Positions 24,001-30,000 of a DNA stretch of 64,000 nucleotides are shown here, one piece after another (within the stretch, counting starts at the first letter, position 1; each line of letters begins with the position of its first letter). The DNA lies in contig CANJVR010000004.1 in assembly GCA_947478395.1 (NCBI GenBank), positions 260,864 to 324,863 of the forward strand. The letters run 5' to 3'. This DNA is from Opitutia bacterium. Lineage in GTDB: Bacteria; Verrucomicrobiota; Verrucomicrobiia; Opitutales; Opitutaceae. A program made the position numbers.

Positions 24001-27000
24001 AACCCGCCCTACCTTTAAATGCCCGCCACCTACATCCCTGCGCCGTCGCGGAGGGTGTCGGCTGAGCAGGTGCGCCGGTAAAAATCGACGTAGTGCGAGA
24101 CGATCGGCTCGGCGGAAAACATTTCTTTCGCCCGAAGCCGGGCCGCGGCGCCGAGCGCGGCTCGGCGGGTGGGATCGGCGATCAACGCATCGACGGCGCG
24201 GGCGAGCGCAGCCGTATCGCCGAGCGGTACGAGCACGCCGCTTTCGCCGTCGACGATCACTTCCGGCACACCGCCGACACTGGTCGAAACGCTGGGACAG
24301 CCAAACGCCATCGCCTCGAGAATGCTCAGACAAAAACTTTCGCTCTCCGAAGCGAAGAAGCCGAGATCCGCGGCTTGAAGGTAATCTTCGATCGCAATGA
24401 CGTTTTCGCGGACGATCACGCGGCCATGGAGGCCCAGGCGTTCAACGCTGGCTGCGTACGGTGAAAAATCTCCACCGGCTAGAATGAGCAGCTTGCAGGT
24501 GGAGCGCGCCTGCAGCCGGGCAAACGCCTCGATCAGGCTGTCGACCCGTTTCACGGGTCGAAGATTGGAAGCGTGCAGCAGGAGGAATTCGTCGTCCGCG
24601 ACCCCCAGTTCCCGACGGACTTCGGCGCGCGTGCGAGTGGGCGCGCGCGGCTCGAAGAAATTGTGGATCACCTCGATCGGTCGTTTGACGGCGATCAGGC
24701 GCTGGGTTTCCCGCCGGAGAAATGCCGAGACCGTGGTGATTCCATCGGCGTGTTCGAGGGCGTGGCGGATGGCGGGACCGTAGCCGGCATCGCGTCCGAG
24801 GAGCGTGGTATCCGTGCCGTGCAACGTAGTCACGACCTTCGGCCGCCGGTGGGCGGGCAGCATGTCGCGCGCGAGAATGGCGGCGGTTGCATGCGGCACG
24901 GCATAGTGTGCGTGGAGGACGTCGAGTTCGTGTTCGCGGGCGACCTCGGCGAGTTTGACGGAAAGCGGCAGCGTGTAGTCCGGATATTTGAACAGCTCGT
25001 AGGCGTTGATCTCGACTGGATGGAAATGAATGCGCGGGGCGTCGAGCGGCAGGCGAAAGGGGCGCTCGTAGCTGATGAAGTGAACTTCGTGGCCGCGGCG
25101 TGCGAGTTCCTCGCCGAGCGCGGAGGCGAGGATGCCGCTGCCGCCGACGCTGGGATAGCAGGTGATGCCGATTTTTAGAGAATGGGTCATGGATAAGACC
25201 TATGGAATTTGTAGGGCTTATGAGCCGCGGAGAAACGAAAGACTCCGCTGGGCGTGCCTATCTTTAGAACCGTCGGGCGGAGCGGACCATCGGCGCGAGG
25301 GAATCGACGACAAGGGGATCGGCGGGCCAGAGCGGAATGGCGTGAGCGACGCCCGCGCTGAGACCGTGCAGATGGGCGCGCGTCAGCTGGAGCTCGACGT
25401 AATCGCGCGTGGCGGCTTGCGAGGCGTGGGCTTTCATCGCCGCGGACCACGGGGCGACGAAATCGGAGACGTTGACGACGAGGGCGGCTTGGTTGCGCGG
25501 TTCGGCCTCGGGTGTGATCGCGTAGAAAAACAGTGCGCCGATGGCATGCGCCGGGGTGTCGCGCAATTCCGGGACGCCGCCGTAGCGGGCAAGGCGGGCC
25601 GCGTTGCGGACGAGGTTTCCCAGCGTGTAGTGATCGGGGTGCTGGTTTTCGACCAACGTCGGCGCGAGCACCACGGCGGGGCGGATGCGGCGGATGATCG
25701 CCGCGAGTTTGAGGGTGTACGGGAGCGACGGGACGAAGTGGGCATCGCCGCCGAGGTCAGCAAATTCAAGCGAGGCGCCGAGAAGTTGGGCCCCTTTCTC
25801 GGCTTCGACGGTGCGCTGGGCGGGTGTGCCGTTGGTCCCGGATTCGCCCTTGGAGCAGACGACGAAATGAGTGGGCCGGCCCGCGGCGGTTTCGCAGGCG
25901 ATGATGCCGCCGGCTCCGAATTCGATGTCGTCGGGATGGGCGCCGAAAACAAGCAGGGTGTTGGTATCAGACATCGGTGTAGGCTTCGTCGGAACGATCG
26001 ATGGTTTCACGCATGACGAATTCGATCTCGGGTGCGTCGGCTTTGTTGAGATAGGCCTGTTCGCCGGCGCCGGAGATGTAGTGCGTGCAATGCAGCACGG
26101 ATTGCATCCAGCGCAAACGGCTGTCGCGCGAGGGGCTGATTTGAGCGGAGTCGAACGGCACGGGAGGAAGCGTGATAAACGAACTGCCCCCTTCGTGAAG
26201 CTGCAACGCACCATCGACGTGGCGGGCGCGGACGATTTCGCCCTCGTAGGGGACGTCGACAAAGAAATCCGAAATCGCGCAGGCGGTCCGGCGGAAGTCT
26301 GGATCGCCCGAGCGCGCGACGCGGATGCCCTCGAGCAATCCCATGGCGCGGTACATCTCGAGGCAGAAATCCGCGACGTTGTCGGCGGCGACTTTCTTAA
26401 AAGCGTCGACCCACTTCGCGTCGACGAAAGCGGGAAGCTGGCGCGCGGTGTTGTCCGGCCAGCCCGCGGGAATGCGTTTGGCGTAGAGCGGGGAAAATTT
26501 CCGCTGCAGCTTGTTTGCGAACGCGAAGTTCAGGGTGAGCGGCGCGTCGGTTTTACGGTGACGGACGGTGGTCTGGGTTTCGCGGCAGTCGTGGTCGCTG
26601 TCGTGATAAAAGAAAACGATCTCGCCGCCAATCTCGGCCTGGAGCCGCCGGGCGGTTTGAAATTTGGCGAAGAGAAAACGCCGCGGAAAAAAACCGCACG
26701 GTTGTTGTCCGAAGCAGATGACGGGGCTGGTGCTCATCGGCGGCCGGGGCCAGCAGGTGACGGGGCGGAAGGATTGGAGATTTGGCCGCAAAAACGCGCG
26801 AAAATTTCCGGGGCGGCGGCGGGACCGTGAAGGCTTCTATAGGCGCGCGGGAGACGAGCGTCGGAGCCGGAGATAATATGGCGCCTTTTTGCGGCCATCA
26901 CGGTTTGAGGTCGGCCGATTTCGGCAGTGCGGCTTGGAGGGCGAGGGCGAAGAGCACGCAGACGGCGCAACCGATCGGGTTCAACCACAGGTAGCCGATT

Positions 27001-30000
27001 TCGTGGGCCGGGTATGCTTTGCCGAGAAAGTAAATCGCGATGACGACTCCCTGTGCGGCCACTGCCGCCCAGAAAACCGCGGTGCCTTTCACGTGTTTCA
27101 GGAAGAACGCGACCATGAAGACCCCGAGCAACGTGGGATAGAAAATCGAAGCCACGATATTCAGCGCCTCGATCAGGTTTTCCGCGAAACTCACGAAGAG
27201 CGCGAAGCCGATCGCGAAAAGGCCCCAGAGGCCGGTGAACCATTTTGCGACGCGAACGTTGCGGGCCTCGTCGTGCGCGGCGAGCGGCCGGAAGTTGCGC
27301 CAGAGATCGATCGTAGTCGTGGTGGCGAGGGCGTTGAGCTCGCCGGCCTTGGACGAAAGGGCGGACGCAAACATCACGGCGAGCAACAGCCCGATCGCGC
27401 CGTGGGGCAGCTGGGTTAAAATGAAAGTGATGAAAACGTAGTCGGAGTCCTTGGTTTTCTTCGTGGACGGATCGGCGGCTTGCAGCGCGGTGAGGGCTTC
27501 GCCGCGGAGCGCGTTCGAGGCCTTTTGGGCGGCGAGCATCTCGACGCGGGCGGCGGCTTCGAGGCCGGAGTCGGCGCGGGGACTTTCGCGCGCGGCCACC
27601 CACGCGCGAATCTTTGCTTGTTTGTCGGCGTGGAGCGCGGCGTGTTTTTGCTCGAGCTCGCGGAATTTGGCCCCGTCGGGTCCCTCGGCGGCGTGGCGCC
27701 ACTGGGTTTGGTTGAACAGGACCGGCGTGTTGGGCTGCGACTGAAAAAACACGAAGAGCAGCGCGCCGAGGACCACGATGAAGAACTGCATCGGGATCTT
27801 GAGGACCGCGTTGAACATCAAGCCGAGCCGGCCCTCGCGCAGCTGCGCGCCGCCGATGTAGCGCTGAACCTGGGATTGATCAGTGCCGAAATAGGAGAGC
27901 GAAAGAAAGAAGCCGCCGAGGATGCCGCTCCACACGGTGTAGCGAATCTTGAGGTCAGGCGTGTAGTTGACGGCCTCGAGTTTGCCGAGGGCGCCCGCGA
28001 TGTGGAAGGCGTCGCTCGGGAGTTTGTGCAGCAACACGACAAAGGCGGTGACCATGCCGCCGAAGATCACGCCCATCTGCCATTTCTGGGTGAGATTCAC
28101 TGCGGCGCTGCCGCCGGTGACGGTGTAGACGATCGCGACGAGGCCGGTGCAAACGATGGTCAGATCGAGCCGCCAGCCGAGCATGGTCGAGAGGATGATC
28201 GCGGGGGCGTAGATGGTGATGCCGGCTTGTATGCCGCGCTGGAGTACGAAGAGACCGGCGCCGAGCAGGCGGGTTTTTTTATCGAAGCGCTGGCCGAGAT
28301 ATTCGTAGGCGGTGTAGACGCCGAGCTTGCGGTAAATCGGCAGGAACACCACGCACACGACAATCAAGGCGAGCGGCAGGCCGAAATAATTTTGGATGAA
28401 CGCGATCCCGTTCTCGCTGGCTTGGCCCGGGAGCGAAAGGTACGTGATCGTGCTCGCTTGCGTGGCCATGACGGAGAGCCCGATCGTGCCCCACTTGGTC
28501 GTGCTGTTCCCCTTGAGGTAGGTGGCGAGGTTGTCGGTGTGGCGCGTGCGCCACGCGCCGTAGGCGGCGATGCCTACGATGGTTCCGAGGAGCACGAGCC
28601 AGTCGAAGGCGTTCATGCGAACACAAAGGAAAACACCGTCAGCGCGACCACGGTGGCGACGAAGACCACGAAGACGAAAATGTAGACGCCCCTCCAGGTG
28701 TGGAAGAACGGAACGCCGGGCGACTCGTCGCCGGATTTATCGTCAGGGCGGGGCGTCATTCCTGCCCCAGCGAGAGGAGATTCGCGAACAGCCGGTAGGC
28801 TCCGGGCACGCCCGCGGGAAGTTGCCGGAAGAAACCAAGGCCGGTGTAGACGTAGTGGCCTTTGCCGTATTTCGCGACGAGCACGCTGCCTTGCAGCGGA
28901 GCTTCACCGGGATCGTTCATGGCGAACAAAGGTGTGTAGTGTTCCTCGTCCCACGAGCTCGGAAAATAGGCGCCGCGCTCCTGCACCCAGCCGTCGAAGT
29001 CGGAGGGCGCGATGTGATTGGGCGCGTTGAGGGCGCGATGATCGGGCGAGAGAAACGACACGGGCGATTTTTCGTCGGTCACGCGGAAAGCGGGGGCGTT
29101 GCCCTGAATCGAAAGTTTGTACGGCCCGAGCTGCTGGGTCTTCAGGGCGTTGGGCCGGTTGTACTGCGCGATGACCGTGCCGCCGGCTTCGACGTAGGCG
29201 AGGAGGCCGGGGAAATTGTCTTTGAGATCGGTGCGCTCGTTGAAGGCGCGGACGCCGATGACGACGGCGTCGAAGCGTTTCAAATTGGCGGGAGTGAGAT
29301 CGGCGCCCGTGAGCTCGGTGACGGCGTAACCCATCTGCGCGAGATTTTCCGCGACGCTGTCGCCGGCGCCGGGCAGATAGCCGACGGTGCGGCCGCGGAT
29401 CGAGAGATCGAGCGCGACGACCTTCAAGCGGGTCGGAGGCTGGAGCAGTTGCACGGGAAGATGCTCGTAGCGGATCAGCGAGCGGCTGTTGTCGAAATGC
29501 GCGCCGTTGATGTCGGCGACAGCGCGGAGGCTGGCGGAGGCTTTCTCGGCCGGGGCGTTGACGGTGAAGATGAGCCGCGCCTTGTCGCCGATCGCGGCCA
29601 GCTTGAACGGTTGGGTGGCCGGCGAGATTTTCCAGCCGGCGGGTGTTTCCAGATGGATCGTGCCGGTGGCGCCCGCGCGAGCGGCGGTGACTTCGACGGT
29701 GGCCGTTTTTGAGGCGCCGGGGGCGAAGAGCTCGACTTCGACGCCGAAGCTGAGCGAGACGGGCGGGATGACTTCGAGATGGCGGCGGGCTTGGGCTTCG
29801 GGCGCGCCGGCAACGATCTGCACGGGTTCGTCGGCGACGATCAGGGTTTGGCCGCCCACTTCGAATACGAACTCGACGGGAAAGGCCGGAGGATTTTCCG
29901 GTCGGCCGATGAGCGACGGGTTGTCGACGCGGAACATGCCCGCGGTACCTTCGAGGCGGAGCCAGTAGGGCTGGGTGGGCACGGTGGTCGCGGGAAGAAT

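Follow-up and report, generated by a model that had tools for sequence, protein, structure and literature searches.

A half-size BshC homologue beside bshB and bshA suggests a bacillithiol-like thiol pathway in many Verrucomicrobia

The gene g02128, located in a 64,000-nucleotide stretch of an Opitutaceae genome (the window), encodes a true homologue of BshC, the enzyme that completes bacillithiol synthesis, by both fold and sequence, consisting of the Rossmann-like core only, without the N-terminal ~86 residues and the C-terminal coiled-coil domain of that enzyme. With this stripped-down BshC relative lying beside bshB and bshA, a shortened enzyme probably allows many Verrucomicrobia to produce a protective thiol similar to bacillithiol. 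We favour, with modest confidence, the reading of g02128 as a minimal BshC that adds cysteine in a bacillithiol-type pathway. A preliminary description had already proposed such a pathway; its core, a half-size BshC homologue in a bshA-bshB cluster, stands, while the restriction to Opitutaceae, the extent given to the cluster and the notion of a copy of the Bacillus pathway do not.

The genes concerned all lie on the minus strand, and re-reading of the positions gave the same coordinates and strands as before. From downstream to upstream they are bshA (24030..25190, 386 aa), encoding N-acetylglucosaminyl-L-malate synthase; a BshB-like PIG-L deacetylase gene (25264..25974, 236 aa); g02128 (25967..26737, 256 aa); a sodium:solute symporter gene (26898..28616, 572 aa; PF00474, TIGR00813) upstream of g02128; and a gene for an exported PIG-L/LmbE-family protein (28756..31296, 846 aa), with PF02585 at residues 52-187 and an N-terminus that reads as a Sec signal peptide. 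The 8-bp overlap reported between g02128 and bshB is evident from the sequence itself, the bshB ATG occupying 25974-25972 and the g02128 TGA 25969-25967.

The open reading frame and ATG start of g02128 were read directly, and the N-termini of its homologues align from the same ATG. A new AF2 model is compact and, like the earlier one, confident (pLDDT 94.4, pTM 0.91), and it reproduces the structural likeness to BshC: Foldseek retrieves 4wbd at E 1.0e-9, followed by class I LysRS at E 3.5e-4, and VIA-align against 48,161 chains places 4wbd_A first (Z 20.2, rmsd 2.6, 238 of 256 residues aligned), the second and third chains reaching Z 14.6 and 9.8 and all after the second falling below 10. The relation is also visible in sequence, contrary to the statement that sequence methods see nothing. 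Profile-profile comparison of the g02128 family with a BshC alignment (hhalign) gives probabilities of 94.7-95.6% and E-values of 6e-8 to 1e-8 over 218-219 columns; the BshC alignment begins at BshC residue 83-87, corresponding to g02128 residue 2-6, and in the best case (95.6%, E 1.1e-8) g02128 residues 6-232 match BshC 87-364. In addition, PF10079 falls exactly on the g02128 homologue of one genome (G248) at E 0.009 and 15.7 bits, below the gathering cut-off of 27 bits, and in the ESM Atlas PF10079 clusters score 0.91, directly below g02128's own clusters. As previously claimed, Pfam and NCBIfam yield nothing for g02128 itself at E<=1, a chance hit to DUF6818 (E 0.23) aside; PF10079 does not match it at E<=1, and a six-frame search of the genome with this model is empty at E<=10. 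No curated BshC model (PF10079, NCBIfam) thus scores it above threshold, which counts against a BshC-type reading. The coiled-coil domain of BshC (PF24850) was found nowhere in the genome at E<=1, and g02128 stops after the core.

With half of BshC missing, g02128 could be a remnant without catalytic activity, or a subunit with a regulatory or scaffold role, with GlcN-malate or GlcNAc-malate as the end product. We consider this highly improbable: homologues 31-87% identical to g02128 have 27 invariant columns, including motifs common with BshC, the reading frame is intact in 53 of the 57 carriers in the class sample, and the predicted fold is compact and confident. The figure of 246 representative clusters related to g02128 was recovered at E<=1e-3, most of the 150 listed being fragments.

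The motifs shared with BshC belong to the core. The GQQ motif (G10, Q11, Q12; 26702..26710, minus strand; codons GGA CAA CAA) follows the first Rossmann strand and aligns to BshC G91, Q92 and Q93, invariant in 16 of 16 BshC sequences. The DSDHD motif (D46-D50; 26588..26602, minus strand), followed by E53, has EDHD..E as its BshC counterpart and places D48, H49, D50 and E53 on D135, H136, D137 and E140 with posteriors of 0.91-0.998; the GAGEQAY motif (G223-Y229; 26051..26071, minus strand), GPGEIAY in BshC, places G223, E226 and Y229 on the invariant G355, E358 and Y361 (0.93-0.998). The codons of both were read. The g02128 family thus carries the core motif combination of BshC (GQQ, K, DHD..E, S..R..Q, GPGE..Y). 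In support of the BshC reading, it has the same consensus residue at 17 of the 34 core positions with a conservation of 90% or more in BshC, and these include G91, Q92, Q93, K106, D135, H136, D137, E140, S333, R339, Q343, G355, E358 and Y361. Nothing in g02128 corresponds to eleven conserved BshC positions beyond the core, R53, N64 and L80 on the N-terminal side and P377, R382, T386, P502, Q507, E508, R509 and H539 among the rest, which argues against a BshC role. The loss of all these N- and C-terminal positions, and the retention of just 17 of those 34 core positions, would fit an active BshC-derived ligase that attaches a group other than cysteine to GlcN-malate, or to a related amino sugar, with a product that is perhaps no redox thiol. 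The BshC substrate site itself is undefined according to the available text of a 2018 review, since the reaction had not been reconstituted and the cysteine donor was unknown at that date (PMC5790435), a point that also favours such a ligase. Against it, the positions that are kept form motifs that do not vary among the 16 aligned BshC sequences, and in the BshA-bearing genomes tested the gene substitutes for canonical BshC beside a bona fide BshA. We regard transfer of a non-cysteine group as rather unlikely.

The identity of the neighbouring BshA is firm, as had been reported: it scores 412.5 bits against TIGR03999 (cut-off 273.7) over model positions 1-373 of 375, and its best solved relative is 5d00, an N-acetyl-alpha-D-glucosaminyl L-malate synthase (E 1.3e-95, full length). 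The adjacent deacetylase, described before as BshB-type, is borne out as BshB-like: it matches PF02585 at E 5e-21 (75.9 bits, cut-off 28.2), has 1uan (E 2e-22) and the BshB1 structure 6p2t (E 1.1e-18) as PDB relatives, and contains AHPDD and HPDH motifs, AHPDD and HxDH being what we take to be the metal-site motifs of PIG-L/LmbE deacetylases. TIGR04001 (BshB1) is its best family match, at 121.2 bits but under the cut-off of 182.5, and this was counted against the pathway reading. In each of 78 genome loci with flank, the gene immediately downstream of the minimal BshC gene is bshB; 75 of 76 genome loci also contain bshA, as do 37 of 38 in a second locus set. In an independent context, a minimal-BshC relative with 41% identity that is located between gatA and gatB still adjoins a BshB1-like gene. 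Counting against the favoured reading, bshB is absent from the cluster in 11 of 38 non-Opitutaceae loci, a poor fit to a mere copy of the pathway in Bacillus, and from 47 of 79 metagenome loci; four genomes without a cluster bshB (96-98% complete) have no BshB1-like gene at E<=1e-8.

The minimal BshC gene is more widely distributed than a family-specific trait. It occurs in 74 of 121 Opitutaceae genomes and 41 of 63 genera, replacing the earlier count of 27 of 40, and, across the class, in 57 of 401 genomes from 14 families. Outside Opitutaceae, where none of 76 Verrucomicrobiota had been credited with it, 40 of 373 genomes of the class carry it, representing 13 further families; one carrier group is a soil lineage in which the named members bear the label Candidatus Udaeobacter. 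Its co-occurrence with bshA, the pattern by which bshC was first identified according to the available review text (PMC5790435), is close in Opitutaceae: BshA is over cut-off in 73 of the 74 carriers (the exception, G224, is 84% complete) and in none of the 47 non-carriers. In a sample of 301 genomes from the phylum, BshA is over cut-off in 22, 20 of which have the minimal BshC; the other two, G070 and G348, have canonical BshC beside bshA. Canonical BshC is over cut-off in none of the 121 Opitutaceae genomes and none of 29 other carriers, and throughout the samples searched bshA is partnered by either the minimal or the canonical BshC, never by both or neither. The cluster is missing from 47 of the 121 Opitutaceae genomes, and GshB is over cut-off in none of the 121; its product is therefore not essential in this family, which counts against the favoured reading, and the dispensability of the cluster also fits the rather unlikely non-cysteine ligase.

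The minimal BshC cluster, whose extent had been drawn too small, is inherited together with the symporter and the exported PIG-L protein of 846 aa. In Opitutaceae, orthologues of the symporter, which carries a hydrophilic insert of ~90 residues, are found in 74 of 74 carriers of the minimal BshC and 1 of 47 non-carriers, and those of the 846-aa protein in 71 of 74 and 1 of 47; both occur in carriers even when not adjacent. The order with the symporter, earlier described as kept in 13 of 13 loci, is found in 72 of 79 loci with flank and in 35 of 36 of a second set, and the corresponding figures for an upstream 846-aa gene are 61 of 69 and 33 of 34. This shared phyletic pattern could indicate a mainly scavenging module, in which the exported PIG-L protein would trim an external GlcNAc- or bacillithiol-type compound, the symporter would import the product and the minimal BshC would process or re-ligate this product, de novo synthesis being secondary. 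The conservation of gene order in 13 further families and the retention of the exported protein by clusters without bshB point the same way, as does the finding that ESM Atlas relatives of the 846-aa protein are mostly from Bacteroidota and Acidobacteriota, phyla with bacillithiol predicted in members according to the available part of PMC6282198. However, nearly all loci (37 of 38 and 75 of 76) encode BshA, a glycosyltransferase with a biosynthetic role, and eight loci (seven from the genome collection and one genome locus) have no upstream symporter despite available flank; a predominantly scavenging role is distinctly unlikely. A further and rather unlikely proposal is a class-wide five-gene module of exported LmbE-type hydrolase, Na+ symporter, minimal BshC, BshA and optional BshB that serves both scavenging and synthesis of a bacillithiol-type thiol. 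Here the exported enzyme and importer would draw on bacillithiol-type compounds in the environment to supply GlcN-malate or a precursor like it, which would account for the ability of the cluster to lose bshB. Were this module real, the 256-residue enzyme would be the catalytic minimum of BshC and the abundant soil Udaeobacter-like lineage would gain its missing low-molecular-weight thiol.

In the favoured minimal BshC reading, BshA would couple UDP-GlcNAc and L-malate, the BshB-like deacetylase would liberate the amine to give GlcN-malate, and the minimal BshC would acylate that amine with activated cysteine, yielding bacillithiol or a close derivative. The predicted site is the cleft lined by the GQQ..K, DHD..E, S/R/Q and GxGExxY motifs; the enzyme would have kept the class-I-synthetase-like Rossmann core, whereas the coiled-coil dimerisation domain would have been lost along with the N-terminal region. 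Other thiol genes were sought in the source genome (98.8% complete). Canonical BshC and glutathione genes were not found there, in line with the earlier account: PF10079, PF04262 and PF04107 have no match, and PF02955 none over cut-off. Ergothioneine genes were not found either. The genome likewise has no bacilliredoxin, no DinB_2 and no YpdA over cut-off, as noted before, and no YtxJ either; the lack of these usual bacillithiol users counts against the favoured reading and again favours a ligase for a group other than cysteine.

Verrucomicrobia are described in the available text of Hiras et al. 2018 (PMC6282198) as a major lineage without a documented or predicted low-molecular-weight thiol, and the cluster is a concrete, testable candidate for one in 14 families, including the Candidatus Udaeobacter soil lineage. 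Surveys for full-length BshC, such as the 2025 NmbA study, whose accessible part describes a BLAST survey with coverage above 80% (PMC12719100), would overlook carriers of the minimal form. A natural enzyme cut down to a 256-residue core would also reveal which parts of BshC are dispensable and offer biochemistry a simpler object.

Compared with known BshC (4wbd; PF10079 plus PF24850), g02128 has in common the Rossmann-like core (Z 20.2, 238 of 256 residues), the GQQ, K, DHD..E, S/R/Q and GxGExxY motifs and the genomic company of bshA and bshB, and the two are mutually exclusive in the genomes searched. It differs in size, with 256 residues as opposed to about 520-570, and in having no counterpart of BshC 1-86, of 365-544 with the coiled-coil, or of an internal 33-residue segment (245-277). 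The catalytic domain of class I LysRS (1irx) is the second-best fold, much below BshC (Z 14.6 over 208 residues); class I aminoacyl-tRNA synthetases belong to the same nucleotide-binding Rossmann superfamily, whereas g02128 has no anticodon-binding domain. HIGH and KMSKS are the signatures of these synthetases, and assignment of g02128 to them was rejected, as the sites inferred from the fold read GQQPCG and GAGEQAY instead. MshC, the mycothiol cysteine ligase and a paralogue of CysRS, performs an analogous step in adding cysteine to the amine of a glucosamine conjugate; cysteinyl-tRNA synthetase chains reach only Z 8.5 and 7.7 against g02128, which has no MshC-type match in the NCBIfam scan. 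With the canonical bshA-bshB-bshC systems of Bacillota, Deinococcota, Bacteroidota and Chlorobiota, the cluster shares an equivalog-level BshA and an adjacent BshB1-like deacetylase; it differs from them in the absence of YpdA, YtxJ, bacilliredoxin and DinB_2, in the dispensability of bshB in some minimal-BshC lineages, and in the co-inheritance of an exported PIG-L protein and a symporter.

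Both fold and sequence establish g02128, the 256-aa ORF proposed as a minimal BshC (window positions 25967-26737, minus strand), as a true BshC homologue. An AlphaFold2 model computed from an alignment of 16 sequences (A1, members 31-87% identical to g02128) reached a pLDDT of 94.4 and a pTM of 0.91, and a Foldseek search with it returned first the B. subtilis BshC structure 4wbd (E 1.0e-9), followed by class I LysRS (3.5e-4). VIA-align likewise ranked 4wbd_A top among 48,161 chains, with 238 residues aligned at an rmsd of 2.6 and a Z of 20.2, the second and third chains scoring 14.6 and 9.8, and an ESM Atlas feature search returned the clusters of g02128 itself and then directly those of PF10079, the Rossmann-like core of BshC, at 0.91.

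The preliminary description held that sequence methods see nothing in g02128, a claim that does not stand: hhalign of A1 against A2—16 diverse BshC sequences collected from the canonical BshC of locus L002, in another genome of the phylum—gave a probability of 94.7% (E 6.2e-8) over 219 columns, and with first-sequence match states 95.6% (E 1.1e-8), equating g02128 residues 6-232 with BshC 87-364. Within this range 34 BshC positions are at least 90% conserved; 32 of them are aligned, and the consensus residue is common to the g02128 family at 17 (in BshC numbering, G91, Q92, Q93, K106, F129, D135, H136, D137, E140, G227, F286, S333, R339, Q343, G355, E358 and Y361). Across 121 Opitutaceae genomes, the Pfam BshC model gave one sub-threshold match (E 0.009), exactly on the g02128 homologue of genome G248. 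Identity between the g02128 family and BshC is about 18%; plain BLASTP of g02128 against a canonical BshC finds no significant match, a profile search with the family against PDB sequences gives a chance match only (E 0.7), no Pfam or NCBIfam model matched g02128, and those homologues that bear a name are all "hypothetical protein".

The two forms differ in extent. BshC residues 1-86 and 365-544, the latter including the coiled-coil domain PF24850, have no counterpart in g02128, a 33-residue internal BshC segment is absent, and eleven conserved BshC positions lie within the lost parts. That minimal BshC is a non-catalytic remnant appears very improbable. A split gene, i.e., a coiled-coil domain encoded elsewhere, is ruled out, PF24850 having no match in the genome at E<=1.

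All five cluster genes in the window are arranged head-to-tail on the minus strand. As read from the sequence, they encode an 846-aa PIG-L-domain protein (28756-31296), a 572-aa sodium:solute symporter (26898-28616), g02128, a 236-aa PIG-L deacetylase resembling BshB (25264-25974) and a 386-aa GT4 glycosyltransferase (24030-25190). The deacetylase gene does overlap g02128 by 8 bp, as previously described, its ATG lying at 25974-25972 and the TGA of g02128 at 25969-25967. The glycosyltransferase is BshA by the NCBI equivalog model (412.5 bits, cut-off 273.7), and its nearest solved structure is 5d00, an N-acetyl-alpha-D-glucosaminyl L-malate synthase (E 1.3e-95). For the deacetylase the closest model is BshB1, below its cut-off (121 versus 182.5 bits), with structure matches to 1uan (E 2e-22) and 6p2t, a BshB1 (E 1e-18). 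No promoter-like site emerged from a promoter and terminator scan, which counted 12 terminator-like sites where 8.5 +/- 2.9 were expected. RNA mapping (a single run, 8% of sampled words) placed three short contigs on the window, for which DNA carry-over is possible: two on bshA, the third as two 21-base pieces at 24188-24208 and 27833-27853. Convergent to bshA lies a gene for a 1219-aa protein (20257-23916, plus strand) that contains DUF4450 and shows weak matches of glycoside-hydrolase type; it was not seen in the related loci examined.

This genomic company is kept across the 80 genome-collection loci of g02128 homologues, scored over loci with flank: bshB lies downstream of the minimal BshC gene in 78 of 78 (within 400 bp in 77), bshA downstream in 75 of 76 (the exception being L092), the symporter gene upstream in 72 of 79 and the 846-aa protein gene upstream in 61 of 69. 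Among 121 Opitutaceae genomes, the minimal BshC gene is present in 74 (41 of 63 genera) and BshA over cut-off in 73; comparison of the two tables shows identical sets of carriers except for G224, a genome 84% complete in which, of the other cluster genes, only the symporter gene is on the contig of the minimal BshC gene. An orthologue of the symporter occurs in 75 of the 121, i.e., all 74 carriers and G302, in which it abuts the end of a contig, and the 846-aa protein orthologue in 72, i.e., the 74 carriers minus G204, G210 and G224, plus G302. G180, a complete genome, retains the 846-aa gene at a distance of about 2.5 Mb from the cluster. This shared presence pattern and the distant retention in G180 indicate inheritance of all five genes as a single unit. 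Thirty-eight neighbourhoods of non-Opitutaceae carriers keep the order 846-aa protein, symporter, minimal BshC, (bshB), bshA; where flank is available, the symporter is adjacent in 35/36, the 846-aa protein in 33/34 and bshA in 37/38.

The 846-aa protein carries a typical Sec signal peptide by sequence reading and is predicted to be exported; if so, it could not simply replace a cytoplasmic BshB. It combines an N-terminal PIG-L domain with a large C-terminal portion assignable to no named family, and belongs in the ESM Atlas to widespread LmbE proteins of about 840 residues, mostly from Bacteroidota and Acidobacteriota. Between two Pfam SSF stretches the symporter holds a charged-rich hydrophilic insert of about 90 residues (about 300-400), probably helical. 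Alternatively, the exported PIG-L protein and the symporter co-inherited with minimal BshC could serve a module devoted mainly to the scavenging of some compound from outside the cell, a reading we regard as improbable.

The minimal gene stands in for canonical BshC, no copy of which scored over cut-off in any of the 121 Opitutaceae or of 29 carriers from other families. In a phylum sample of 301 genomes, 22 have BshA over cut-off; 20 of these carry the minimal gene (19 covered by the PF10079 search, which left out G369), and the remaining two, G070 and G348, have a full-length BshC beside bshA. Among the genomes searched, none was seen with both BshC forms, nor any bearing BshA with neither. 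We lean, with modest confidence, towards g02128 being a minimal BshC that performs the job of BshC: BshA would yield GlcNAc-malate, BshB would convert it into GlcN-malate, and minimal BshC would add cysteine. In the review by Chandrangsu et al. (PMC5790435), bshC was itself first found through co-occurrence with bshA, and the BshC reaction is given as not reconstituted, with the activated cysteine donor not known. The chemistry proposed for minimal BshC is thus drawn by homology from an enzyme with a mechanism still open; that it is a ligase for another substituent is a less likely alternative.

The step assigned to BshB is not constant. In 11 of the 38 non-Opitutaceae loci (L205-L208, L217, L218, L221, L224, L226, L234 and L240), bshB is missing and bshA comes immediately after the minimal BshC gene; in 26 bshB is present, and one runs into a contig edge. 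The same bshB-less arrangement occurs in 47 of 79 metagenome loci (L104-L182; 21 with bshB, 11 undetermined), a set picked by similarity and not random. The BshB1 model at E<=1e-8, searched in five genomes with bshB-less clusters, gave with this query no match in four (96-98% complete) and a weak one in the fifth (47.8 bits). No substitute deacetylase was found downstream of bshA in bshB-less loci, where the genes are unrelated and vary by locus (kinase, GT2, thioesterase, transposase). A simple Bacillus-type pathway does not accommodate these clusters.

The gene had been reported in 0 of 76 genomes outside Opitutaceae, a restriction contradicted by its presence in 40 of 373 non-Opitutaceae genomes of the class. 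Of 401 genomes in a class sample, 57 carry the gene, spread over 14 families and 32 of 190 genera; in the phylum sample, three carriers lie outside Opitutaceae, two belonging to another family of the same order and one to the family f28, where only 1 of 21 genomes has the gene. Four copies in the class sample (G659, G533, G623 and G513) matched as two or three adjacent pieces, which suggests frameshifts, pseudogenes or assembly errors. When a soil metagenome copy was searched against a large protein collection, an organism name stood on only 2 of the 120 relatives listed, both Candidatus Udaeobacter sp., placed by NCBI in Chthoniobacterales; one cluster of its relatives has 1123 member sequences. 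Contigs of L067, L078, L087 and L088, labelled Limnocylindria, Binatia, Planctomycetota and Cyanobacteria, carry near-identical clusters at 70-75% identity to g02128, and these labels are probably binning or labelling errors, not gene transfer. At locus L103 (3402-8753), a divergent relative 41% identical to g02128 sits between gatA and gatB; its immediate upstream neighbour is a GNAT acetyltransferase gene (weak MshD-type match, 24.5 bits), and downstream a BshB1-like gene (155 bits) lies convergent to it.

A full-text search found no literature joining bacillithiol with "Opitut". According to Hiras et al. 2018 (PMC6282198), no thiol is documented or predicted for Verrucomicrobia, and in the accessible text on bacillithiol and Verrucomicrobia or Verrucomicrobiota the cluster is not described, while the supplementary tables of surveys (2018, 2025) could list partial pathways. 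Glutathione synthase shows no complementary pattern in cluster-less Opitutaceae, with GshB over cut-off in 0 of 121. YtxJ, bacilliredoxin and DinB_2 were not found in the window genome, nor were YpdA or EgtB over cut-off. The cluster, absent from 47 of 121 Opitutaceae, is dispensable within the family. Compared with the Bacillus-type pathway, its missing usual thiol users and its dispensability set the cluster apart from the simple version of that system.
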